DNA of 64,000 nt from Candidatus Latescibacterota bacterium (lineage in GTDB: Bacteria; Latescibacterota; UBA2968; UBA8231). Made by a program: the position numbers and the translations under genes. Numbering within the stretch: position 1 is the stretch's first letter; the number at the start of each line of letters is the position of its first letter. Under the pieces are notes generated by a model. That model was not told the DNA's origin. It saw only the letters and a list, made by a program, of their open reading frames with translations, and searched no databases. Below, one piece after another: positions 1 through 35,396 of the stretch. The DNA lies in the NCBI GenBank assembly GCA_965243025.1, contig CBDETY010000003.1, positions 4,640,001 through 4,704,000 of the forward strand. The letters run 5' to 3'.

Positions 1-2
1 AC

Positions 3-524
3 CGCAAGGCCGCCTTCGACGTCAGCACCCTCGGCACCTGGAACGCGGTGCGCGCCGCGGTCGAGCTCGGCATGCCGAGGTTCGTCAACACCGGTCCGCA
101 CTTCACGGTCACCGGCAGCTTCTACCACCAGTTCGATTTCGGCATTCCCGAGGAGGTGCCGGCGCACTCAGGCTCCGGCAACGTCTACGCCCTGTCGAAA
201 TCCGCCGGGCAGGAGATCTGCCGCCTGTTCGCCGCCAACCACCCGATCCACGTCCTCTGCATGCTGTTCCTCAACTTCCGCTCCCACGTAGCACCCGCCG
301 ACGAGGTGGGCGGCGACCTCAACCCGTTCACGGTCAGCTGGCGCGACGCCGGAAAGGCGATCCGGCTGGCTCTCGAGGTCGACCTCGCTACCCTGCCGAG
401 CCGCAACGAGGCCTTCTTCGTCACCGCGGACCTGCCGCACGGCAAGTACTCCAACGCCAAGGCGAAGCGGCTTCTCGGGTTCGAGCCGCAGGACCGGCTC
501 GAGGAATACTGGCGCAGGTCCTGA
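3..524 (+). CDS. NAD-dependent epimerase/dehydratase (extended SDR), 5'-truncated by the window edge
   Basis: Frame is open from base 3 (RKAAFDVSTLGTWNAVRAA...). It has the SDR YxxxK motif (VYALSK) and a C-terminal 'AKAKRLLGFEPQ' typical of the family. Confidence 0.75.
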   Translation, partial: RKAAFDVSTLGTWNAVRAAVELGMPRFVNTGPHFTVTGSFYHQFDFGIPEEVPAHSGSGNVYALSKSAGQEICRLFAANHPIHVLCMLFLNFRSHVAPADEVGGDLNPFTVSWRDAGKAIRLALEVDLATLPSRNEAFFVTADLPHGKYSNAKAKRLLGFEPQDRLEEYWRRS

Positions 525-549
525 CAGCCCCACGGACGAGCCGCTGACC

Positions 550-1617
550 GTGCCTTCGACCGAAGCTGTGCTGCAGGTGTTCCGGGGACCGGACCGCGGC
601 TTCGAGCTGCGCAGCCTGGAGCTGCCGGAGCCGGCCGCCGGAGAGGTCCTGGCGCGGGTCGACCTGGCGACGATCTGCGGCTCCGACCTGTACACGGCGC
701 GCGGCGCCCGTCCGCAGCCGGTCCCGGCGGTGCTCGGACACGAGGGGGTCGGGACGGTCGTTGCCACGGGGCGCGGCCGAAACCTCGAGGTCGGAAGCCG
801 GGTAACCTGGTCCCTGGTCGACCGCTGCGGTTCCTGCGCCTTCTGCACCCGCTACGGCCTGCCCGAGAAGTGCGAGTCCCTGTTCAAGTACGGGCACGCC
901 CCGCTCGCCGAGGGGGGCGCGAGCGGATGCTACGCCTCGCACATCCTGCTGCGCCCCGGCACCAAGGTGGCGGCGGTGCCGGAAGCCTTGAGCGACGCGG
1001 CGGCGGCACCGGCAAACTGCGTCCTGGCGACCGCGGTGAACGTCGTTTCGCAGCTTCCCGAATCCTGCGAAAGCGCCGTCGTCCAGGGCGCCGGCCTTCT
1101 CGGTCTCTACCTTTGCGCGCTGCTGCGCAGGCGCGGGGTCGGCCACCTTTTCTGCTGCGATCCCGACGGCCGGCGGCTGGCCCTTGCCCCCTCTTTCGGC
1201 GCCACCCCTCTCGGTGCGGACCCCGGGGCGAGAGAGGCCGCGGTCCGCGACCGCTGCCCGCACGGCGTCGACGCCGTGATCGAGGCCGCGGGGGATCCGG
1301 CCGTCGTGCCGGAAGGGGTGGACCTCGTGCGGACAGGGGGATGGCTTGTTCTCGCCGGCATGGTGCACCCGCGCAGCGCCCTGGAGCTGACCGGGGAGCG
1401 GATCATCCGCAAGTGCCTTACCCTGCGCGGGGTCCACAACTACAGCCCTCGCCATCTGCACGAAGCGGTGCGGTTTCTCGAGGCGACCGCGGCCGTCCAT
1501 CCGTACGAGCGGCTCGTCTCACCGTCACTCTATCCGCTGCCGCGGCTCGAGGAGGCGTTCGCCGCCGCGGAGTCCCGGGAGTGGCACCGGATCGCGGTGC
1601 GCCCAAAGGAGTGCTGA
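550..1617 (+). CDS. Zinc-binding alcohol dehydrogenase (MDR), phosphonate-catabolism-associated type (TIGR03366-like)
   Basis: Catalytic Zn motifs ICGSD and LGHEGVG, structural Zn CGSCAFC...C, nucleotide-binding GAGLLG, and GVHNY. The stop codon lies 1 bp before the phnA start. Confidence 0.85.
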   Translation: MPSTEAVLQVFRGPDRGFELRSLELPEPAAGEVLARVDLATICGSDLYTARGARPQPVPAVLGHEGVGTVVATGRGRNLEVGSRVTWSLVDRCGSCAFCTRYGLPEKCESLFKYGHAPLAEGGASGCYASHILLRPGTKVAAVPEALSDAAAAPANCVLATAVNVVSQLPESCESAVVQGAGLLGLYLCALLRRRGVGHLFCCDPDGRRLALAPSFGATPLGADPGAREAAVRDRCPHGVDAVIEAAGDPAVVPEGVDLVRTGGWLVLAGMVHPRSALELTGERIIRKCLTLRGVHNYSPRHLHEAVRFLEATAAVHPYERLVSPSLYPLPRLEEAFAAAESREWHRIAVRPKEC

Positions 1618-1618
1618 T

Positions 1619-2833
1619 ATGCCCGGAGTGAACGGACGCGACTACGGCCTGCCGGCCGCGCCGGTCGTCGGTATCTGCATCGACGGCTGCGACCCGGCCT
1701 ACATCGAGGCCGCCGCGGGCTCCATGCCCAACCTGCAGGAGATGATCGCCTCGGGATGCTCCGGCCTGGCGCAGGCGGTCGTTCCCTCTTACACCAACCC
1801 GAACAACGTCGCCATCCTCACCGGAACGACCCCGGACGTCAACGGCATCTGCGGCAACTACTACTACGACGAGGCCAGCGAACGCGAAGTCATGATGGAC
1901 GACCCGCGGCACCTGCGGGCGGCTACCGTTCCGGCGGCTTTCAGCGCCGCGGGCGCCAGGGTGGCGGCGGTCACCACCAAGGAGAAGCTGCGCCGCTTTC
2001 TCGGCCACGGCCTGCGCGGAATCAGCTTCTCCGTCGAGCGCGCCGAGGCGGTTACAGAGGCCGAAAACGGCATCGGCGACGTGCTCGGCATCGTGGGGCG
2101 GAAGAACCCCGGTATCTACGATCCCGAGGCGAGCGTCTTCTGCCTCGAAGCGGGAGCGCGCCTGCTGCAGCGGGAGAAAATCGACCTGATGTACCTGTCG
2201 ACGACCGACTTCGTGCAGCACAAGTTCGCCCCGGGGGCGCCGGAGGCGGCCGCCTTCTACAGCCGCCTCGACCTCTTCCTCGGCGAGCTGCACGATATCG
2301 GCGCCGTCGTCGGCATCACCGCCGACCACGGCATGAACGACAAGACGAAAGCCGACGGCACCCCGAACGTTCAGTACCTCGGGAGCATCCTCGAATCCGC
2401 CGGCATCGAGGCGCGGGTGATTCTGCCGGTCACCGACCCGTACGTCGTCCACCACGGCGCCCTGGGCTCGTACGCGACCGTTTACCTCGGGGCCGCGGAC
2501 CTCCCCCGGGCGCGCGCCCTGTTGGAACAGGTTCCTGGAGTGGAGCGGGTTCTCGCGAAGCAGGAGGCAGCCCTGGAATACGCGCTGCCACCGGATCTCA
2601 TCGGCGATCTCGTGCTGCTGGCGGACCGCGGCACCGTGCTCGGCAAGACCCCGGACTGGCACGACCTGTCCGACGTCGAGACCGGGCTCAGGTCGCACGG
2701 CGGCCTGCACGAAGCGACGGTCCCCTTCATCGTCAACCGCCCCCTGAAGAGCCGCTGGCGGGAGCGCCTGGCAGGAAACCGGATGCGGAACTTCGACCTC
2801 TTCGACGCCCTCTGTAACGGGGTGGAGGACTGA
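1619..2833 (+). CDS. phnA: Phosphonoacetate hydrolase (alkaline phosphatase superfamily)
   Basis: PhnA hallmark motifs: ICIDGCD, PSYTNPNN (Thr nucleophile), GICGN, YLSTTDFVQHK, ITADHGMNDK, TDPYVVHHGALGS, LRSHGG. Confidence 0.95.
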   Translation: MPGVNGRDYGLPAAPVVGICIDGCDPAYIEAAAGSMPNLQEMIASGCSGLAQAVVPSYTNPNNVAILTGTTPDVNGICGNYYYDEASEREVMMDDPRHLRAATVPAAFSAAGARVAAVTTKEKLRRFLGHGLRGISFSVERAEAVTEAENGIGDVLGIVGRKNPGIYDPEASVFCLEAGARLLQREKIDLMYLSTTDFVQHKFAPGAPEAAAFYSRLDLFLGELHDIGAVVGITADHGMNDKTKADGTPNVQYLGSILESAGIEARVILPVTDPYVVHHGALGSYATVYLGAADLPRARALLEQVPGVERVLAKQEAALEYALPPDLIGDLVLLADRGTVLGKTPDWHDLSDVETGLRSHGGLHEATVPFIVNRPLKSRWRERLAGNRMRNFDLFDALCNGVED

Positions 2834-3112
2834 TCCGCTGTCCTGTGGACTCTCCGAACCGGAGGACCGGGACCCGGGGATGCGGGGCCCGGGATGGAAC
2901 AAGCGGGTGGGATTTTCGGGGGAATAACGGACCGGGTGCCTCGGCTGTCCGAGGGCATTCGTGGGACTGGCAACCTCAACCCGTGGCAGCGCGGCAGTTC
3001 CCGGGCGGGACCGGGAGCCGGGCAACGAACCGGCAGCAGATCAAAAGCGGGCAGAAAAACCCGTGGCTGAGCGGAACACCCGCCCCGCCGCGGACTTTCC
3101 GAGGCAGGACCC

Positions 3113-4537
3113 ATGCGTGAGTACGGCAGCATCATCGGCGGGAAACAGCAGCCTGGCGGCGAGTGGATCGACGTGCGCAACCCGTATACGTCGGAGCCGG
3201 TGGGAAGGGTCGCCTCCCTCGATCCCGGGAGCCTCGACGCCATCGTCAGGCAGGTCCACGCCGCCGAGGTGCGCCTCAGCCGAAGGGAGCGCAGCGACGT
3301 GCTTACGCGGATGGCGGCCGCGGTCGAGGAGCGTGCCGGCGAGATCAGCCGCCTGATCACGGACGAGTCCGGGCTCTCCCTGAAGGACTCCCGCTACGAG
3401 GCGCTGCGGGTCTGCGAGGTGCTGCGCTTCTCGGGGATGGCGGCGCTGCAGGACGATTCCGAGGTGTTCCCCTGCGACGTCTCCGTCCAGGGGCGCCCGC
3501 GCCGCATCTACACCTCCCGGTTTCCCTGGCGCGCCATCGCGGCGATCACCCCCTTCAACCACCCGATGAACCAGGTCGCCCACAAGATCGCGCCGGCGAT
3601 CGCGACCAATAACACGGTGCTGCTGAAGCCATCTGAGAAAACCCCGCTCTCCGCTTACTACCTGGCGGAGCTGGCGTTCGAGTGCGGACTGCCGCCGCAG
3701 TCGCTGGCCGTATTCAACGGCACGGCCGGCGGTGTTGCCGAGCCCCTGGTCGCCCACGACCTCGTCGACATGGTGACCTTCACCGGCGGCACCGCCACCG
3801 GCCGCCGCATCGCCGAACTGGCCGGGTACAAGCGGCTGGTGCTCGAGCTGGGGGGCAGCTCGCCGCTGCTCGTGCTCACCGACGCCGACCCGGAGACCGC
3901 GGCGGGGATCGCCGCCGCCGGCATCTTCCGGAACAGCGGCCAGCGGTGTACGGCGATTCGCCGCCTACTCGTCGACGAGAGGGTCGCCGGCCGCTTTGCC
4001 GCGGCCCTGGCGGCGGAGGTCTCGCGGCTGACCTGCGGGAACCCCTACGAGGAGGAGACCGACGTCGGCACGGTGATCTCCGGGGAAGCGGCCCGCGGCA
4101 TCGAGGCCCGGGTTGAGGACTGCCTCGGCCGCGGCGCCGAGCTGCTGGCCGGCCACCGGCGCGAGGGGGCCCTCTACCACCCGACGGTCCTCGACCGGGT
4201 CGATCCCGCCTGCGAGCTGGTGAAGCGGGAGACCTTCGGACCGGTCGCACCGATCATCCGCGTCTCCTCCCTCGACGAGGCGGTCCGCCTGGCCAACGAC
4301 ACCCCCTACGGGCTGTCCGCCGGGGTGGTCAGCGATCACTGGCCCTCCATTCAGCGGGTGATCGGCGAGGTGGAGGCGGGGACGGTGAACGTCAACGAGG
4401 CGCCGAGCTACCGGCTCGAGACCACTCCCTTCGGGGGCATCAAGTCATCGGGGCTCGGGTACAAGGAAGGGGTGCTCGAGACGATGAAGGCGATGACCTG
4501 GGTCAAGACCTACTCGCTGCCCTGGGACCGGCCCTGA
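3113..4537 (+). CDS. phnY: Phosphonoacetaldehyde dehydrogenase
   Basis: ALDH motifs ITPFNHP, LELGG, NSGQRCTA and ETFGP. It also has the PhnY-specific HKIAPAIATNN and C-terminal GLGYKEGV...VKTYSLPW, and lies next to phnA. Confidence 0.93.
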   Translation: MREYGSIIGGKQQPGGEWIDVRNPYTSEPVGRVASLDPGSLDAIVRQVHAAEVRLSRRERSDVLTRMAAAVEERAGEISRLITDESGLSLKDSRYEALRVCEVLRFSGMAALQDDSEVFPCDVSVQGRPRRIYTSRFPWRAIAAITPFNHPMNQVAHKIAPAIATNNTVLLKPSEKTPLSAYYLAELAFECGLPPQSLAVFNGTAGGVAEPLVAHDLVDMVTFTGGTATGRRIAELAGYKRLVLELGGSSPLLVLTDADPETAAGIAAAGIFRNSGQRCTAIRRLLVDERVAGRFAAALAAEVSRLTCGNPYEEETDVGTVISGEAARGIEARVEDCLGRGAELLAGHRREGALYHPTVLDRVDPACELVKRETFGPVAPIIRVSSLDEAVRLANDTPYGLSAGVVSDHWPSIQRVIGEVEAGTVNVNEAPSYRLETTPFGGIKSSGLGYKEGVLETMKAMTWVKTYSLPWDRP

Positions 4538-4576
4538 GTGACGCGCCGCCGCGAGCGTACCCGCCTTGCGAACCGG

Positions 4577-5602
4577 CTACAGCGGAAACTCGACGCGCCT
4601 GCCTTCGCGGAGGCTGATGTCGACCGCCTCGGTGAATTCCATGTACCTCACGCCGTCGGCGAAGTTGGTGTGCGTCACCGGGGCGCCTTCGCGAACGGCG
4701 TCGACGAACTCCCTCTCGACGCGCCACTCCCCCCGCTTTTCGGGCGGGATCTCCAGCCGCCGGAACTCGCTGTCCCCCTCTCCCGCCACCCAGGCGGCCC
4801 CGTCCTCCAGCTTGAAGGCCCCCTTTGTCCCGTGCAGCTCGAGATCGGCTCCGCTGCCACCGAGCCGCGCCACGTTGGACAGGTGGTAGACGGCGGTGGC
4901 CCCCGACTCCATTTCCGCGACGATCCCGATCGACTCGGGGACGTCGGCATCCTGCATCCGGCCGGTCTCCTCGTTCAGCCGCTCCGTCGTGAACGACGCG
5001 GCGTGCGCGACGAGGGATTTCTCGAACCCGGCGTAGCGGTGGACGTTCTCGTTGTAGATGCCCATGGCCATGATGTTGTTGCCCGACAGGTCGCGGCGCT
5101 GGCGCCAGTGCAGCGGAGCCTGCGGATCGTAGCCCCCTGCGAGCGAACTGACCCGGATCTCGAGCCAGTCGCCGAAGCAGCCGTCGGCGATCAGATCCAG
5201 GGTCGTCGCCTCCGACTCGGGGTCCATCTGCCCGGGGACGATCATGGCGACCTTGTCCGATGCCAGGGAAGCGTCGTACATCCGCCGGGCTTCCTCGAGA
5301 TTCATCGCCATGCGCGCCTCGGTGAGGATGTGCTTGCCGGCTTTCAGGGTCTCGAGGGTGACCTCGCAATGCATGTACGGCCAGGTGCCGACGCAGACGG
5401 CGTCGACGTCGTCCCGGTGCACCACTTCCCTCCAGTCCTCGACGACGTCGGGGATGCCGAAGTCGTCGGCGACCTTCTGCGCCGACTCGCGGCTGCGGTT
5501 GCAGACGGCGACCACCTCGACGCCGTCGATCTCCTGGAACCCGGGGATGTGTTTCAGCCTGGTGTTCGCCCCGGCGCCGATCAGTCCTATTGAGAGCGTC
5601 AT
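4577..5602 (-). CDS. Gfo/Idh/MocA family oxidoreductase
   Basis: N-terminal GLIGAG, VDAVCVGTWPYMH, and GKHILTEARMA (variant of the EKP motif). Confidence 0.85.
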   Translation of the reverse strand: MTLSIGLIGAGANTRLKHIPGFQEIDGVEVVAVCNRSRESAQKVADDFGIPDVVEDWREVVHRDDVDAVCVGTWPYMHCEVTLETLKAGKHILTEARMAMNLEEARRMYDASLASDKVAMIVPGQMDPESEATTLDLIADGCFGDWLEIRVSSLAGGYDPQAPLHWRQRRDLSGNNIMAMGIYNENVHRYAGFEKSLVAHAASFTTERLNEETGRMQDADVPESIGIVAEMESGATAVYHLSNVARLGGSGADLELHGTKGAFKLEDGAAWVAGEGDSEFRRLEIPPEKRGEWRVEREFVDAVREGAPVTHTNFADGVRYMEFTEAVDISLREGRRVEFPL

Positions 5603-30639: not shown

Positions 30640-33600
30640 TCAGCTCCTCAGGCGCTCGCCGGCCGGGTCGTAGAAGGCGCCGTGGTGAACGCGGGCTTCG
30701 GCCAGCCTGCCGCCGCAGTCGATGCGGAAGGTCTCCCCTTCGCGGGCGGCGACCTCGGCCGGCAGCCAGCAGAGGCCGATGGTGTCCCCGAGGGTGGGGC
30801 TGACGCGGCAGGAGGTCACCCAGCCGATGATCTCCGGCCGGCCGCGGCCGTTGCTCCGGACGATCTGCATCCCCTCTTCGGGCACGGGGTTCCGCTCCTT
30901 CATCACGAAGCCGGTGAGCCGCTGCCGCGGTCCCTCCGCGGCGACCCGCGCCAGAGCCCGCTTCCCGAGGAAGTCGGGCTTCTCGAGCTTGACCGCCCAG
31001 GCGGCGTCGGCGGCGATCGGGTCCGACAGCGCGTCGGTGTCCTGGCCGACGATGATGTGCCCCTTCTCGAGACGCAGAACGCGCTGGGCCTCGACGCCGA
31101 AAGGCCGGATGCCGAGCTCCTCCCCGGCCTCGAGGAGCCGCTCCCACAGGTGGCGGGCGAACCCGGCCGGGCAGTGGATCTCGTACGACAGCTCCCCGGT
31201 GAAGCCGATGCGCAGCAGCAGGCAGGGCACCCCGGCGACCTCGGCGCGGCGCGCCCGCATGTAGGGGAAGCGTCCGTTGGCGAGGTCGCGTTCGGTGAGC
31301 CGGGAAAGCAGCTCCCGCGAGCGCGGACCGGCAAGATTGAAGGCGGCGTTGGCTTCGGTCAAGTCGGCGACCTGCACCCCTTCCCCCCACCCGGACTGGC
31401 GCCACCACTCGATCCACTCCAGCACGTTTCCCGCCCCGGCCGAGGTCGTGCTCATGTACCACTCCCGGTCGGAGAGGCGGGCGCAGACCCCGTCGTCGAT
31501 GACCACCCCCTCGTCGTTGCACATGATGCCGTAGCGCACCCGCCCGCGGCGCAGGTCGCGCCACTGGTTGACGTAGAGCCGGTCGAGCAGTCCGGGGACA
31601 CCGGGGCCGGTGAGCTGCAGCTTGCCGAGCGGGCTGACGTCGATGAGGCCGGCGCGCTCGCGCACGGCGCGCACTTCCGCCGCCGGGTCGCCGTACTGCT
31701 CGGGACGCAGCCACGGCCCGGCCACCATCATGCGGGCGCCGTTGTCGAGGTGCCACTCGTGCAGCGGCGACACCTGCACCGGGTCCATCCGCTGCCCTGC
31801 GAGGGCGCCGAGGGTCACCGGGACCACCGGCGGCCGGGAGGTCGTCCTGCCGAGGTCGGCGACGGCGCGGCCGAGCTCCCGCCCGGCCTGCTCGAGACTG
31901 TTGAGGGCGCACATCTTCCCCTGGCAGGGGCCCATCGACACGGTGGTGTAGCGCTTCAGCAGCTCGACGCTGTCGTACCCCTCGGCGATGGCGGCGGCGA
32001 CGTCCTCGTCGGTGACGTCCTCGCACAGGCAGACGAAGCGTTTGCCGGAGCAGGACGGCAGCGGTGGCGGGGGTTCTCCGGAAGCGGCCGGTGGCAGCGT
32101 CGCGGGAGATCGGGCCGCACCCGGCCCGGCGGCGGCAGATGCCGTAGGCGTCCCGCGTGGGGAAACGGAGCCCTGCCAGCGAGGAGATGAGGCGCGGTCA
32201 GAAGCGCCTGCAAAGGAGGAGGCCGCGGCCCCGGCGGCGGCACCGTCGGCGGCCTGGGCTTCGACCCCTTCGACCCCGCGGCAGCGGCCGGCGTTGAAGA
32301 GGCCGGCGGGCAGCTCTCCGAGCCGGAACTCCCCTGAAGCGTCGTCGAAGCGGCCGCGGGCCCCGGCCATGAACAGCAGCTCGTTGGCAGGGGCGAAGCG
32401 CCCCCTGACGACGATGGAATCGCACGGGACCTCGAGCGTCGGGCCGGACCCGCTGGCGTTCCCGGCAGTTCCTCCGGCGGGCGAATCCGCTGATTCCGCC
32501 GGCCTGGCGGCCCCTCCGGCAGCTCGGACGGCGTCGGGATCGGCTGCTTTCGCTGACCCGGCGGCGGCCCCTCGGGCAACTCCGGCGGCGGTCGGGCGGG
32601 CTGCTTCTGATGACCCGGCGGCGACTGCTTCAACCTCCCCGGCTCCCGCTGCATCGGCGGCCGGATCCGCTGTTTCAACTGACGTTGCCGCGGCTGCGCC
32701 AAGCCCCCCGGCTCCCGCAGCCTCGGCAGCCGGCCCGATGAGTGCGGCCTTCACCGATCCGCGGCCCCGCGCTCCGACGATCCTGCTGCCGAGGTGGACG
32801 GCGGCACCCGCGGCCCGCAGGGCCGGCTCGAACTCGTTGGCAACCGCCTCTCTCTCGTCGACGAGGGCGGCGATCTCGACGCCGGCCTCACTCAGCTCGG
32901 CGGCCAGCCGCCACCCCTCGTCGTCCCCCGCCTCGACGACGGTCCGCCTGCCGGGAAGCACCCCGTGCAGGTGCAGCAGCCGCTGCGCGGCGCCGGCGAG
33001 CAGGATGCCGGGCAGGTCGTTGCCGGCGAACAGCCCCGGGGATTCCACCGCACCGGCGGCGGCGACGATGGCGCGGGCGCGGACCTTCAGCAGCCGGTTC
33101 CCCCGGAACGCCGCCAGCCAGTTGTCCTGGTACCAGCCGACGACCGCGGTGTCGAGATGGAGGACGGCGTTTCCGGCGCGCTCGATCTCCGCCAGCGCGG
33201 TCTGCACTGCCTCATCGGCGGCGGCCATTCCACCGGGGCGGCAGCGCAGGTGTCCTCCCGCTTCGGGGTTCTCGTCGAACAGCAGCACCCGCGCCCCCTC
33301 CCGGGCCGCGGCCGCGGCCGCGGCGATTCCCGCGGGTCCGGCGCCGACCACGGCGACGTCGGCGTGCAGGTACTGCTTGTCCCCCTCACCGGGGACCGCC
33401 TCCTCGTCGACGCTGCCGAGCCCGGCGGCGCGGCGCAGCACGCGCTCGTAGAGCGGCCACAACCGCGCCGGCCTGATGAAGGTCTTGTAGTAGAAGCCGA
33501 CCGGCATGAGCGGCGCCCCGAGACCGGCGAGGGACATGAGGTCGCGGTCGAGCGAGGGCCAGGCGTTCTGGGAGCGCACCTCCATGCCCGCCTCGACCGG

Positions 33601-33885
33601 CCGCCGGCAGGCGCGCACGTTCGCTTCGCCGCCGATCTGCACCAGGCAGTTCGGGCAGTGGCCGGCGCAGCAGAGCAGGCCGCGGGGGCGGTGGTACTTG
33701 AACGAGCGGCTGAGCGTCTTCACCCCGGCGGCGGCCAGCGCCGAGCCGACGGTGTCGCCGGGATGGGCCCGGTGCTTCACCCCGTCGAAGGTGAACTCGA
33801 TCAGCCCGGAGCGGTCTATCGCCTCGCCGGGGCGGGCCTCCGGGCGGCGCAGGGGCCAGTCTCCGGGCTGCAGGGGATCAGCCAT
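30640..33885 (-). CDS. soxA: Sarcosine oxidase / N-methylglutamate dehydrogenase alpha subunit-like (FAD/NAD + THF-binding GcvT domain)
   Basis: IDRS, GDTVGSAL, RSFKYHRPRG, VGAGPAG, CEDVT, ELLKRYTT..MGPCQGK, RIGFTGELSYEI, LRLEKG. Contains an Ala/Gly-rich insertion. Confidence 0.88.
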   Translation of the reverse strand: MADPLQPGDWPLRRPEARPGEAIDRSGLIEFTFDGVKHRAHPGDTVGSALAAAGVKTLSRSFKYHRPRGLLCCAGHCPNCLVQIGGEANVRACRRPVEAGMEVRSQNAWPSLDRDLMSLAGLGAPLMPVGFYYKTFIRPARLWPLYERVLRRAAGLGSVDEEAVPGEGDKQYLHADVAVVGAGPAGIAAAAAAAREGARVLLFDENPEAGGHLRCRPGGMAAADEAVQTALAEIERAGNAVLHLDTAVVGWYQDNWLAAFRGNRLLKVRARAIVAAAGAVESPGLFAGNDLPGILLAGAAQRLLHLHGVLPGRRTVVEAGDDEGWRLAAELSEAGVEIAALVDEREAVANEFEPALRAAGAAVHLGSRIVGARGRGSVKAALIGPAAEAAGAGGLGAAAATSVETADPAADAAGAGEVEAVAAGSSEAARPTAAGVARGAAAGSAKAADPDAVRAAGGAARPAESADSPAGGTAGNASGSGPTLEVPCDSIVVRGRFAPANELLFMAGARGRFDDASGEFRLGELPAGLFNAGRCRGVEGVEAQAADGAAAGAAASSFAGASDRASSPRWQGSVSPRGTPTASAAAGPGAARSPATLPPAASGEPPPPLPSCSGKRFVCLCEDVTDEDVAAAIAEGYDSVELLKRYTTVSMGPCQGKMCALNSLEQAGRELGRAVADLGRTTSRPPVVPVTLGALAGQRMDPVQVSPLHEWHLDNGARMMVAGPWLRPEQYGDPAAEVRAVRERAGLIDVSPLGKLQLTGPGVPGLLDRLYVNQWRDLRRGRVRYGIMCNDEGVVIDDGVCARLSDREWYMSTTSAGAGNVLEWIEWWRQSGWGEGVQVADLTEANAAFNLAGPRSRELLSRLTERDLANGRFPYMRARRAEVAGVPCLLLRIGFTGELSYEIHCPAGFARHLWERLLEAGEELGIRPFGVEAQRVLRLEKGHIIVGQDTDALSDPIAADAAWAVKLEKPDFLGKRALARVAAEGPRQRLTGFVMKERNPVPEEGMQIVRSNGRGRPEIIGWVTSCRVSPTLGDTIGLCWLPAEVAAREGETFRIDCGGRLAEARVHHGAFYDPAGERLRS
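32452..32736. repeat. Degenerate in-frame tandem repeats (54-57 bp units plus a duplication with 69-bp period) within soxA
   Basis: ggcggcccctccggcagctc...gctgacccggc (32506) and ggcggcccctcgggcaactc...gatgacccggc (32563), with a related copy at 32452. ccccggctcccgc..c.tcggc.gccgg occurs at about 32637 and 32706. Confidence 0.65.
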
Positions 33886-34153
33886 TTTCATCCTCCGAAG
33901 GCCGCCATTCCCAGGCGCGGATCACCTCGTTGCTCCCGCGGTCGCGCTCGATCAGGAACCACAGGCCGCACCCGGACGCGTGCAGCCACCACTCGGTCTG
34001 CGGGCCCATCGGGTTGGCGCGCAGGTAGAGATAGCGGATCCACTCCTCATCCGGGGTTTCCTGCGGCCGGGACGGCCTCGGGTGGCTCTCGCCGCCGTAG
34101 CGGAACTCGCTGGCGTTGCGCTCGCCGCAGTTGGGGCAGGGAATCAGCAGCAT
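33878..34153 (-). CDS. soxD: Sarcosine oxidase delta subunit-like (Zn-binding)
   Basis: MLLIPCPNCGER..SEFRYGGE, YLYLRANP, EWWLH..GC..WF..ERD. Confidence 0.9.
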   Translation of the reverse strand: MLLIPCPNCGERNASEFRYGGESHPRPSRPQETPDEEWIRYLYLRANPMGPQTEWWLHASGCGLWFLIERDRGSNEVIRAWEWRPSEDENG

Positions 34154-34157
34154 CGCG

Positions 34158-35396
34158 TCAATGGCCTACCGAGGCCGCCCCTTTCTCGCCGACCTGGTCG
34201 AACTCGGAGAAGCGGGACAGCCGGAACGGGGCGATCAGCTCCGGGGTGCGCTTCGTTGCGATCAGCTCGGCCATGGTCCTGCCGCAGATCGGGGATGCCT
34301 TGAAGCCGTAGGTCCCCCAGCCGACGTCGAGGAGGAAGCCGTCTACCGGGGTGACCCCCATCAGGGGGCTGAAGTCCGGCGGCATCTCGCACAGCCCCGC
34401 CCACTGGCGCAGCACCTTGACCTCGCCGAGGAAGGGGAACAGCTCCAGCACGTGGCCGGCGATCCCCTCGAGGAAATCGAGGGAAGAGTCGACGGAGTAG
34501 GAGGTGAACGGGTCGATGCTTGCCCCCATCACCAGCTCGCCGCGGTCGGACTGGCTGACGTACACGTGCAGGCTGCCCGAGACCACGACGACGTCGAGAA
34601 ACGGTTTCAGCGGCTCGGTGACGCAGGCCTGCAGGGGGAAGGTCTCCATCGGCAGCTCGAGGCCGACCATGCGGGCTATGTTGGAACCCCAGCCCGCGGT
34701 GGCGTTGAGCACCGTTTCCGCCTCGACGAAGCCGCGGTTGGTGTGCACCCCGGCGACGGCTCCGTTGCGCACCTCGATGCCGGTGACCTCGGTCTGCTGG
34801 TGGATGTGCACGCCGCGCCTGTCGGCGTGGTGGGCGAACCCCCAGACCACGGCGTCGTGGCGGATGATGCCCCCCGGCGGGTGGTAGAGGGCGGCGAGTA
34901 CGGGGAAGCGCGGATGGTCGCTGAGGTCGAGCTGGGGGCATAGCCTGGAGAGCTCGTCGGGCCAGACGAGACGGGAGTCGACCCCCTCGAGGCGGTTTAC
35001 TTCGGCACGACGCCGCATCGTCCGCACCGAGCCGTCGTTGTGGGCGAGGGTGAGGTGGCCGCGCTGCGAAAACATGACGTTGAAATCGAGCTCGACCGAC
35101 AGCTTCTCGTACAGCTTGACGCTGCGGTCGTAGAAGCGCACCCCTTCCGAAGTCAGGTAGTTCGAGCGGATGATGGCTGTGTTGCGGCCGCTGCCCCCCG
35201 AGCCGATGTAGCTCTTCTCCAGCACCGCGACGTCGGTGATCCCGTGCTCCTTGGCCAGGTAGTAGGCGCAGGCCAGACCGTGGGCGCCGCCGCCGATGAT
35301 GACGGCGTCGTAGCGGCGCTCCAGGTCGCGGGACCGCCACATGCGTCCGGCGGGCCTGCCCCCGTTCAGGGCCTGACGGATCAGCTTGAGGGACAT
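34158..35396 (-). CDS. soxB: Sarcosine oxidase / N-methylglutamate dehydrogenase beta subunit-like (FAD)
   Basis: IIGGGAHGLACAYYLAKEHG, GSGRNTAIIRSNY, FSQRG, RHDAVVWG, LRQWAG, GWGTYGFKA, EKGAASVGH. Confidence 0.92.
   Translation of the reverse strand: MSLKLIRQALNGGRPAGRMWRSRDLERRYDAVIIGGGAHGLACAYYLAKEHGITDVAVLEKSYIGSGGSGRNTAIIRSNYLTSEGVRFYDRSVKLYEKLSVELDFNVMFSQRGHLTLAHNDGSVRTMRRRAEVNRLEGVDSRLVWPDELSRLCPQLDLSDHPRFPVLAALYHPPGGIIRHDAVVWGFAHHADRRGVHIHQQTEVTGIEVRNGAVAGVHTNRGFVEAETVLNATAGWGSNIARMVGLELPMETFPLQACVTEPLKPFLDVVVVSGSLHVYVSQSDRGELVMGASIDPFTSYSVDSSLDFLEGIAGHVLELFPFLGEVKVLRQWAGLCEMPPDFSPLMGVTPVDGFLLDVGWGTYGFKASPICGRTMAELIATKRTPELIAPFRLSRFSEFDQVGEKGAASVGH

Follow-up and report, generated by a model that had tools for sequence, protein, structure and literature searches.

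The degradation systems closest to the locus described here, a cluster of three genes for an alcohol dehydrogenase (ADH), PhnA and PhnY near the start of a 64-kb stretch of bacterial DNA (G000:C3:4640001-4704000, the window hereafter), are the pbfG gene clusters of Piazza et al. (Protein Sci, Sept 2026; PMC13576164). These authors gave the name PbfG to a subfamily of Pfam PF00107 dehydrogenases, of which the Cellulosimicrobium protaetiae enzyme was reported to oxidise 2-hydroxyethylphosphonate (HEP) with NAD+ (kcat 9.9 s-1, KM 0.10 mM, kcat/KM 88,500 M-1 s-1), to be specific for HEP and, upon addition of PhnX, to lead to phosphate release. In that paper, pbfG clusters with phnX or with phnY-phnA, often without phnW and pbfD, and Gemmatimonadota are among the listed carriers. 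An AlphaFold3 model given there assigns Cys45, His66 and Cys166 to the catalytic zinc, four cysteines to a structural site, and Arg56, His124, Asn298 and Ser47 to HEP binding. A literature search for other papers on PbfG or HEP dehydrogenase found none. An earlier, sequence-only reading of the window had taken the TIGR03366 clade of zinc ADHs to be biochemically uncharacterised, a statement that has been overtaken by the HEP dehydrogenase activity reported for PbfG.

Comparison with these systems indicated that the ADH-phnA-phnY cluster of the window very probably encodes a hydrolytic HEP pathway, in which HEP is oxidised, the carbon-phosphorus (C-P) bond is cleaved and phosphate is gained. 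The genome that carries it comprises 6.8 Mb on three contigs, is 96% complete and has a G+C content of about 70%. The features of the cluster, in window coordinates, are as follows.

550..1617, + strand: gene for a PbfG-type zinc ADH, a predicted NAD+-dependent HEP dehydrogenase of 355 amino acids (aa), with a GTG start
1606..1611, + strand: AAGGAG, a Shine-Dalgarno-like site for phnA within the 3' end of the ADH gene, read from the sequence
1619..2833, + strand: phnA, for a predicted phosphonoacetate hydrolase of 404 aa (C-P cleavage to acetate and phosphate; TIGR02335, PDB 1ei6/3szy)
2834..3112, + strand: spacer of 279 bases between phnA and phnY, with no recognised function
3113..4537, + strand: phnY, for a predicted NAD+-dependent phosphonoacetaldehyde dehydrogenase of 474 aa (phosphonoacetaldehyde to phosphonoacetate; TIGR03250, PDB 4i3t)

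The stop codon of the ADH gene (TGA, 1615-1617) is separated by one base from the phnA start (ATG, 1619), and the arrangement first described, an ADH gene 1 bp upstream of phnA and followed by phnY, is exact to the base. The one-base gap, together with the AAGGAG site, suggests translational coupling of the two genes.

The ADH carries the Pfam domains ADH_N (PF08240, 67.8 bits) and ADH_zinc_N (PF00107, 55.6 bits). In NCBIfam it is matched best by TIGR03366 ('putative phosphonate catabolism associated alcohol dehydrogenase', HpnZ_proposed), with 300.7 bits and an E value of 1.2e-89; L-threonine dehydrogenase comes next at 98 bits. An AlphaFold2 model of the protein (predicted local distance difference test, pLDDT, 86.2) found the zinc ADH 1vj0 as its best PDB match in Foldseek (template modelling score, TM, 0.87) and the threonine dehydrogenase 2dfv at TM 0.82, and the modelled fold is that of a typical zinc ADH. 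No PbfG structure was present in the PDB copy searched.

An Isoptericola homologue from the same actinobacterial family (L059:7953-9008; 411.6 bits on TIGR03366) was used as a stand-in for the characterised C. protaetiae PbfG, and has Cys45, Ser47, Arg56, His66, His124, Cys166 and Asn298 at exactly the published PbfG numbers. When the window ADH was aligned with this stand-in (337 residues, 39% identity, E 1e-56), all seven named residues were found to be kept, as C43, S45, R54, H64, H116, C157 and N297. The catalytic zinc ligands C43, H64 and C157 stand opposite C45, H66 and C166 and are invariant in alignment A1. The structural zinc cysteines C93, C96, C99 and C108 are invariant both in A1 and in an 86-row ADH alignment, except for a stop codon in one relative (G104) that is discussed below. 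The larger alignment drew on 80 loci from one-genome-per-species contigs and 20 same-family loci, of which 85 of 100 gave a hit with at least 80% query coverage; threonine dehydrogenases are not among the rows of this alignment or of the quick maximum-likelihood tree calculated from it.

In that tree, one clade of 61 rows (Shimodaira-Hasegawa-like approximate likelihood ratio test, SH-aLRT, 98) contained all 49 rows with phosphonate genes within 6 kb. The residues R54, H116 and N297 were present in all 60 other rows of this phosphonate-linked clade (37/37 and 23/23) and in 0, 4 and 5, respectively, of the 25 outgroup ADH rows, and mark the clade. Within it, the window ADH falls in a subclade of 38 rows (SH-aLRT 100) composed of Gemmatimonadaceae, Verrucomicrobiota, Planctomycetota and one Caldilineaceae row, with the actinobacterial type placed in another subclade. 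The copy in the window is uncharacterised and belongs to a subclade missed by the curated models. The retention of clade-specific substrate residues across 61 homologues provides independent comparative support for the published PbfG function.

As for its partners, PhnA scored 486.1 bits on TIGR02335, above the curated cut-off of 407.55, and matched 1ei6 (402.9 bits over residues 3-400) and 3szy (397.4 bits) far better than any other PDB chain. The stretches TNPNN, TADHGMN and SHGG, which we take to be catalytic in PhnA, are identical to those of 1ei6 in the alignment. PhnY scored 592.6 bits on TIGR03250, with the next family at 398, and its best match in the PDB was Sinorhizobium meliloti PhnY (4i3t, 421 bits; next entry 274). 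For PhnA and PhnY alike, the solved enzymes of S. meliloti and P. fluorescens stand well ahead of all other chains. The motifs NSGQRCTA and LELGG, presumably those of the aldehyde dehydrogenase catalytic Cys and Glu, are identical to 4i3t in the alignment.

From these assignments the following route can be proposed. The ADH would bind the phosphonate group of HEP through Arg54, His116, Asn297 and Ser45 and the hydroxyl group of HEP through the catalytic zinc (Cys43, His64, Cys157); as judged from the characterised homologue and the conserved residues, hydride would then pass to NAD+ to give phosphonoacetaldehyde. The equilibrium would favour HEP, and PhnY, by virtue of its family, would pull the reaction forward through the irreversible oxidation of phosphonoacetaldehyde to phosphonoacetate with a second NAD+. 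PhnA, which its family places among the zinc hydrolases of the alkaline phosphatase superfamily, would cleave the C-P bond to yield acetate and phosphate, and the route as a whole would need no oxygen. The proposal of the sequence-only reading that the ADH oxidises HEP and is followed by PhnY and PhnA is supported by the activity reported for the homologue (PMC13576164), by the kept residues and by the position of the ADH within the clade.

The other phosphonate genes were searched for on the whole genome, with curated cut-offs, and not in the window alone. The best genome matches were 154 bits for phnW (TIGR02326, cut-off 400.8), 38 bits for phnX (TIGR01422, cut-off 220), 109 bits for phosphoenolpyruvate (PEP) mutase (cut-off 319.55) and 77 bits for the PbfD-type oxidase model TIGR03364 (cut-off 285.1), the last coming from weak paralogues of which none passed; PhnJ (PF06007) had no match in the genome. 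The published PbfD1, an oxidase of 2-aminoethylphosphonate (AEP), belongs to TIGR03364 according to PMC10590968. The ADH and PhnA are each present in a single copy in the genome. The absence of phnW, phnX and C-P lyase genes that had been read from the window holds there and extends to the entire genome, and what stands directly upstream of the ADH is a pair of short-chain dehydrogenase/reductase (SDR) genes and not phnW. Because the genome has no recognised enzyme that converts AEP to phosphonoacetaldehyde, the route would be dedicated to HEP in this organism.

To place the locus among its relatives, 20 same-family loci with 8-kb flanks were surveyed and genome-wide searches were made in the same 20 genomes. 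With a threshold of E<=1e-60, the ADH was detected in 57 of the 168 genomes of the phylum, G000 (the genome of the window) among them, and in 50 of the family's 75 other genomes; the nearest record that carries a name (L018) bears the label Gemmatimonadaceae. In the 20 family loci the genes lie in the same interval beside guaB, and in 17 of them this interval is closed by a convergent Gfo gene. Their contents vary: phnA is present in 17, phnY in 9, a TIGR03364 (PbfD-type) oxidase in 13 (434 bits for that of L130) and the SDR pair in 18. Beyond the family, another 12 loci, most of them from other phyla, have the ADH together with phnA. By these counts the ADH is conserved with phnA and phnY in relatives; this check, like that for an upstream phnW, did not go against the first reading.

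A recognised consumer of phosphonoacetaldehyde is present in 17 of these 20 genomes. The three whose locus lacks both phnA and phnY (G110, G112, G115) are the only ones of the 20 with phnX above the cut-off, located elsewhere in the genome, so that phnX substitutes for phnA plus phnY in these three genomes of one bacterial family, a further piece of comparative support for the published function. Additionally, five genomes with phnA and no phnY in the locus (G133, G134, G136, G142, G144) carry phnY elsewhere.

The survey also bears on whether the cluster serves AEP or another aminophosphonate instead, with an unrecognised or promiscuous aminotransferase making phosphonoacetaldehyde and the ADH being ancillary or buffering. 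The ADH stands beside a PbfD-type AEP oxidase in the 13 family loci mentioned, and phnW was found in two further genomes (G156, G161), neither of which has PbfD in the locus. In the window's own genome, a class-V aminotransferase (L006:1459-2646) scores 154-206 bits on PhnW models; however, it lies below every curated cut-off, reaches 224 bits on a pyridoxamine-pyruvate transaminase model and is located about 2.9 Mb away. All HEP-binding residues are retained in the ADH, which is under purifying selection, and PbfD enzymes do not oxidise HEP according to PMC10590968, so that an ADH beside PbfD would add a separate substrate. Altogether, we regard service to AEP or another aminophosphonate as decidedly unlikely for this locus. 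No AEP entry enzyme (neither phnW nor a PbfD-type oxidase) was found in 6 of 21 genomes, namely G000, G103 and G104 of the window's genus and G164, G166 and G167 of another genus. For the five other than G000, the TIGR03364 search at E<=1e-40 was negative; the control genomes were negative in it as well, which makes it a weaker result than that for G000. Within the family, the configuration free of AEP entry enzymes is confined to these six; in the rest, the ADH has either a PbfD-type oxidase or phnW as its partner. The description of the ADH as standing in place of PhnW, made by the sequence-only reading, fits the window's genus but does not extend to the 13 of 20 family loci in which the ADH is paired with the AEP oxidase.

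The selection acting on the genes was estimated against the same-genus genome G103. For the ADH, PhnA and PhnY the ratios of nonsynonymous to synonymous substitution rates (dN/dS) were 0.226, 0.174 and 0.133, respectively, with 0.172 for the flanking guaB and 0.166 for the flanking Gfo gene, values that indicate purifying selection on all three enzymes.

Several observations weigh against the HEP pathway proposed here. At the level of the enzymes, identity between the ADH and the stand-in is no higher than 39%, the ADH falls in a subclade other than that of the characterised actinobacterial type, and its 300.7 bits are below the TIGR03366 curated cut-off of 328.1. Three further members of the same subclade also fail this cut-off (283.1, 307.5 and 317.5 bits), with actinobacterial members at 390-419, and because the whole subclade scores low, the shortfall reflects the reach of the model and not an absent feature. 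The 592.6 bits of PhnY are likewise below the curated cut-off of TIGR03250 (635.65); its orthologues in the family score 596-650, with 4 of 14 passing, and lineage divergence is a better description than membership of another family. Both curated models, TIGR03366 and TIGR03250, leave this lineage out at the set cut-offs, a point of consequence for automatic annotation.

As regards the direction of the reaction, PbfG is faster in reverse in vitro, with a kcat/KM of 290,000 for the reduction of phosphonoacetaldehyde and 88,500 for the oxidation of HEP (PMC13576164). The same paper reports two Actinoplanes homologues in biosynthetic clusters, and the window ADH could by analogy work reductively, making HEP from phosphonoacetaldehyde. 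The PEP mutase search in the genome found no match above the cut-off, hence no source of phosphonoacetaldehyde for such a biosynthesis, and the neighbours of the ADH are the two catabolic enzymes PhnA and PhnY; a biosynthetic role is, in our judgement, extremely unlikely.

At the level of the locus, no transporter or regulator was found by family scans of the open reading frames (ORFs) of the cluster or of the 64-kb window. A tblastn search of the genome with PhnC, PhnD, PhnE and a GlpT-like major facilitator superfamily (MFS) transporter from other pbfG loci gave generic ATP-binding cassette (ABC) ATPases and one PhnD-like match of 26% identity (C3:33065-33649), and nothing convincing. Among the relatives, the ADH orthologue of G104 (L129:8083-9147, - strand; 85% identical) is interrupted in frame by a TAA at codon 99, a structural-zinc Cys position, and is either a pseudogene or an assembly error. 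In G129 (L168:7286-7486) only the last 75 ADH codons are left, directly upstream of an intact phnA; this is a deletion relic, marking the loss of pbfG in that lineage. Additionally, G164, G166 and G167 have ADH-phnA with no recognised phnY or phnX, which speaks against a complete pathway in them.

These observations, with the mosaic gene content of the family and the 279-base spacer that parts phnA from phnY in this genus only, would also fit a locus that is a decaying remnant and no longer supports growth on any phosphonate. The spacer had no Rfam match and no second copy in the genome, and it is poorly conserved within the genus, being about 280 bases in G103 and about 148 in G104 (which is without about 130 of the bases); in other genera of the family it measures 9-30 bases. 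Against decay, none of the three ORFs is truncated and each has its catalytic motifs, their dN/dS of 0.13-0.23 is that of the flanking housekeeping genes, and contigs of all three genes from close relatives occur in a sponge metatranscriptome library, although this last point is weak. We therefore hold the remnant to be very unlikely in the window's genome. In the wider family the picture is different: since gene content varies and relics exist in relatives, the guaB-Gfo interval is a site of repeated loss. Of 20 ADH-lacking family genomes searched, 18 could be classified (G114 had no guaB match, and G094, with a split guaB, was left out): 6 have the SDR pair without a phosphonate gene, 2 the pair with phnA, 1 the pair with the oxidase, 4 have guaB beside Gfo and 5 show neither arrangement.

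Relatives of the locus occur in environmental libraries. In the sponge metatranscriptome library X20, 26 contig pieces 90-99% alike to the locus matched ADH, phnA and phnY, with SDR2 (the second gene of the SDR pair) touched as well, and one of them spans the ADH/phnA junction (1333-1752); the pieces left 2773-3080 uncovered, a hole that proves nothing. As X20 consists of assembled contigs, it is no proof of transcription, which is a further point on the debit side of the HEP pathway. Pieces 90-99% alike across SDR2, ADH, phnA and phnY were also found in the sponge metagenome runs X12 and X13, from two studies. Runs X1-X4 contained all sampled words of window positions 1-4600 and may be the source of the DNA. 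HEP is reported to occur in sponge metabolites (PMC13576164), and sponge-associated Gemmatimonadota have been reported (PMC10581226); the lineage of the window is apparently sponge-associated and a member of Gemmatimonadota. Sponge metabolites with HEP, together with relatives in sponge metagenomes, point to a possible substrate source, and host-derived HEP might feed this operon.

The cluster is flanked by genes whose relation to it is less direct. In the upstream stretch (L005 = G000:C3:4622001-4642000), the order is guaB, a gap of 80 bases, SDR1, SDR2, a gap of 25 bases and the ADH gene, and the flanking genes nearest to the cluster are listed below.

L005:17059-17796: SDR1, an extended-SDR gene, uronate-dehydrogenase-like, 245 aa, with a 4-base overlap with SDR2
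L005:17793-18524, + strand: SDR2, an extended-SDR gene, uronate-dehydrogenase-like, 243 aa, which starts 208 bases before the window and has its 3' part at window 1..524
4577..5602 of the window, - strand: convergent Gfo/Idh/MocA oxidoreductase gene, the downstream boundary of the locus, outside the pathway

The operon probably starts with the two SDR genes, co-transcribed with the ADH gene. When L005:14500-20000 was scanned for promoters and terminators, nothing promoter-like emerged, and the single terminator-like site lay inside guaB, which is no more than in shuffled sequence. SDR1 and SDR2 have weak Pfam Epimerase matches (Epimerase/NAD_binding_10) and score 44 bits on the model of Azf-type glucose-6-phosphate dehydrogenase, which has a cut-off of 400. 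In a PDB search made with SDR2 alone, uronate dehydrogenase (3ay3/3rft) was matched at E ~1e-7. The SDR1 neighbours in the atlas, named 'uronate dehydrogenase family' with a score of 0.98, are leads only. GxxGxxG and Tyr132/Lys136 are retained in all 18 rows of the SDR2 type, and proteins of the SDR1 type have a degenerate glycine motif and no Tyr-x3-Lys, GxxGxxG and Tyr-x3-Lys being what we take to be the SDR motifs. The genome has two further tandem pairs of these types (G000:C3:6562473-6563926 and C3:1181017-1182512), whose neighbours are carbohydrate genes, among them sulfatases and a UxuA-like dehydratase, and DUF6785/DUF6784 membrane proteins. In all three pairs Tyr-x3-Lys is missing from the first product and retained by the second, which suggests that each pair may consist of an active subunit and a degenerate partner.

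A functional link between the SDR pair and the HEP pathway is doubtful. The pair was found in none of the 79 loci outside L018 and, as seen above, persists in family genomes without phosphonate genes; because of this, we consider it a resident neighbour, probably co-transcribed, and not a part of the pathway. A wider operon can be imagined in which the products of the two translationally coupled genes, SDR1 without Tyr-x3-Lys and a catalytically intact SDR2, form a heteromeric sugar dehydrogenase, co-transcribed with pbfG, that opens HEP-bearing glycans or other hydroxylated phosphonates to feed PbfG, PhnY and PhnA in these sponge-associated Gemmatimonadota. If true, this would link polysaccharide breakdown to phosphonate mineralisation in a host with HEP-ester metabolites, yet we judge it decidedly improbable. 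The pair was also considered as PbfF and ruled out, as PbfF is an unrelated protein of Pfam PF02826.

Other genes, in this genome and elsewhere, were also noted. Next to the pbfG-type ADH in eight loci outside the family (L019-L022, L037, L045-L047; Verrucomicrobiota, Planctomycetota, Acidobacteriota and Streptomyces) there is a GlpT/PgtP-like MFS transporter, a candidate importer of HEP or organophosphonates, of which tblastn found no homologue in the genome of the window. Two ABC genes farther upstream of the SDR pair encode fused exporter-type proteins. About 2.15 Mb from the window, a pair of oxidative genes is located at G000:C3:2490913-2492336 (L159:7913-9336, - strand). One encodes a PhyH-family dioxygenase (352 bits on NF052437, methylphosphonate hydroxylase, cut-off 500) and the other an HD-domain oxygenase (252 bits on NF052439, hydroxymethylphosphonate dioxygenase, cut-off 300; 202 bits on TIGR03276), and a divergent ABC solute-binding protein and two permeases adjoin them. 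By these scores the pair looks like a second route of C-P cleavage, of the PhnY*/PhnZ type. Scans of the other ORFs of the window against NCBIfam and Pfam found no phosphonate gene and ordinary metabolism; in the Pfam overview, at 30640-35396 (- strand), a sarcosine-oxidase-alpha-like protein of 1083 aa, with 2Fe-2S, flavin adenine dinucleotide (FAD) and aminomethyltransferase domains, adjoins a DAO-family FAD oxidoreductase of 412 aa.

Compared with known systems, the ADH shares with L-threonine 3-dehydrogenase the medium-chain zinc dehydrogenase fold with catalytic and structural zinc. It differs in matching that family at 83-98 bits against 300 for TIGR03366 and in having Arg54, His116 and Asn297, which are absent or rare in the outgroup ADHs, a set that does not include threonine dehydrogenases. 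The PhpC-type (Pfam PF00465) HEP dehydrogenases/phosphonoacetaldehyde reductases catalyse the same reaction and are reported from degradative clusters, with either phnY-phnA or phnX, in a like role, but they have an unrelated fold, and PhpC is about 300-fold less efficient on HEP than PbfG (PMC13576164). With PhnWAY, the AEP pathway of S. meliloti as described in PMC10574752, the window cluster has the last two steps in common, PhnY and then PhnA, and those enzymes are its best solved matches. The entry is different: there, the pyridoxal phosphate (PLP) transaminase PhnW acts on AEP, whereas here a dehydrogenase would act on the alcohol HEP, and phnW is absent from the genome.

The closest counterparts are the pbfG-phnY-phnA clusters themselves. 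From these, the window cluster differs in having no transporter or regulator and in having two SDR genes directly upstream; moreover, the characterised enzyme is actinobacterial, and the window ADH is 39% identical to its stand-in, belongs to another subclade and scores below the TIGR03366 cut-off. The operon type for HEP breakdown is already in print, including for Gemmatimonadota, and this copy adds little new biology. That the sequence-only reading arrived at the same conclusion as the paper of Sept 2026 speaks for the method. With the clusters of that paper (PMC13576164) the locus has in common the ADH family, the zinc and HEP-binding residues, the phnY and phnA partners, a lack of phnW and pbfD, and Gemmatimonadota as a named phylum.

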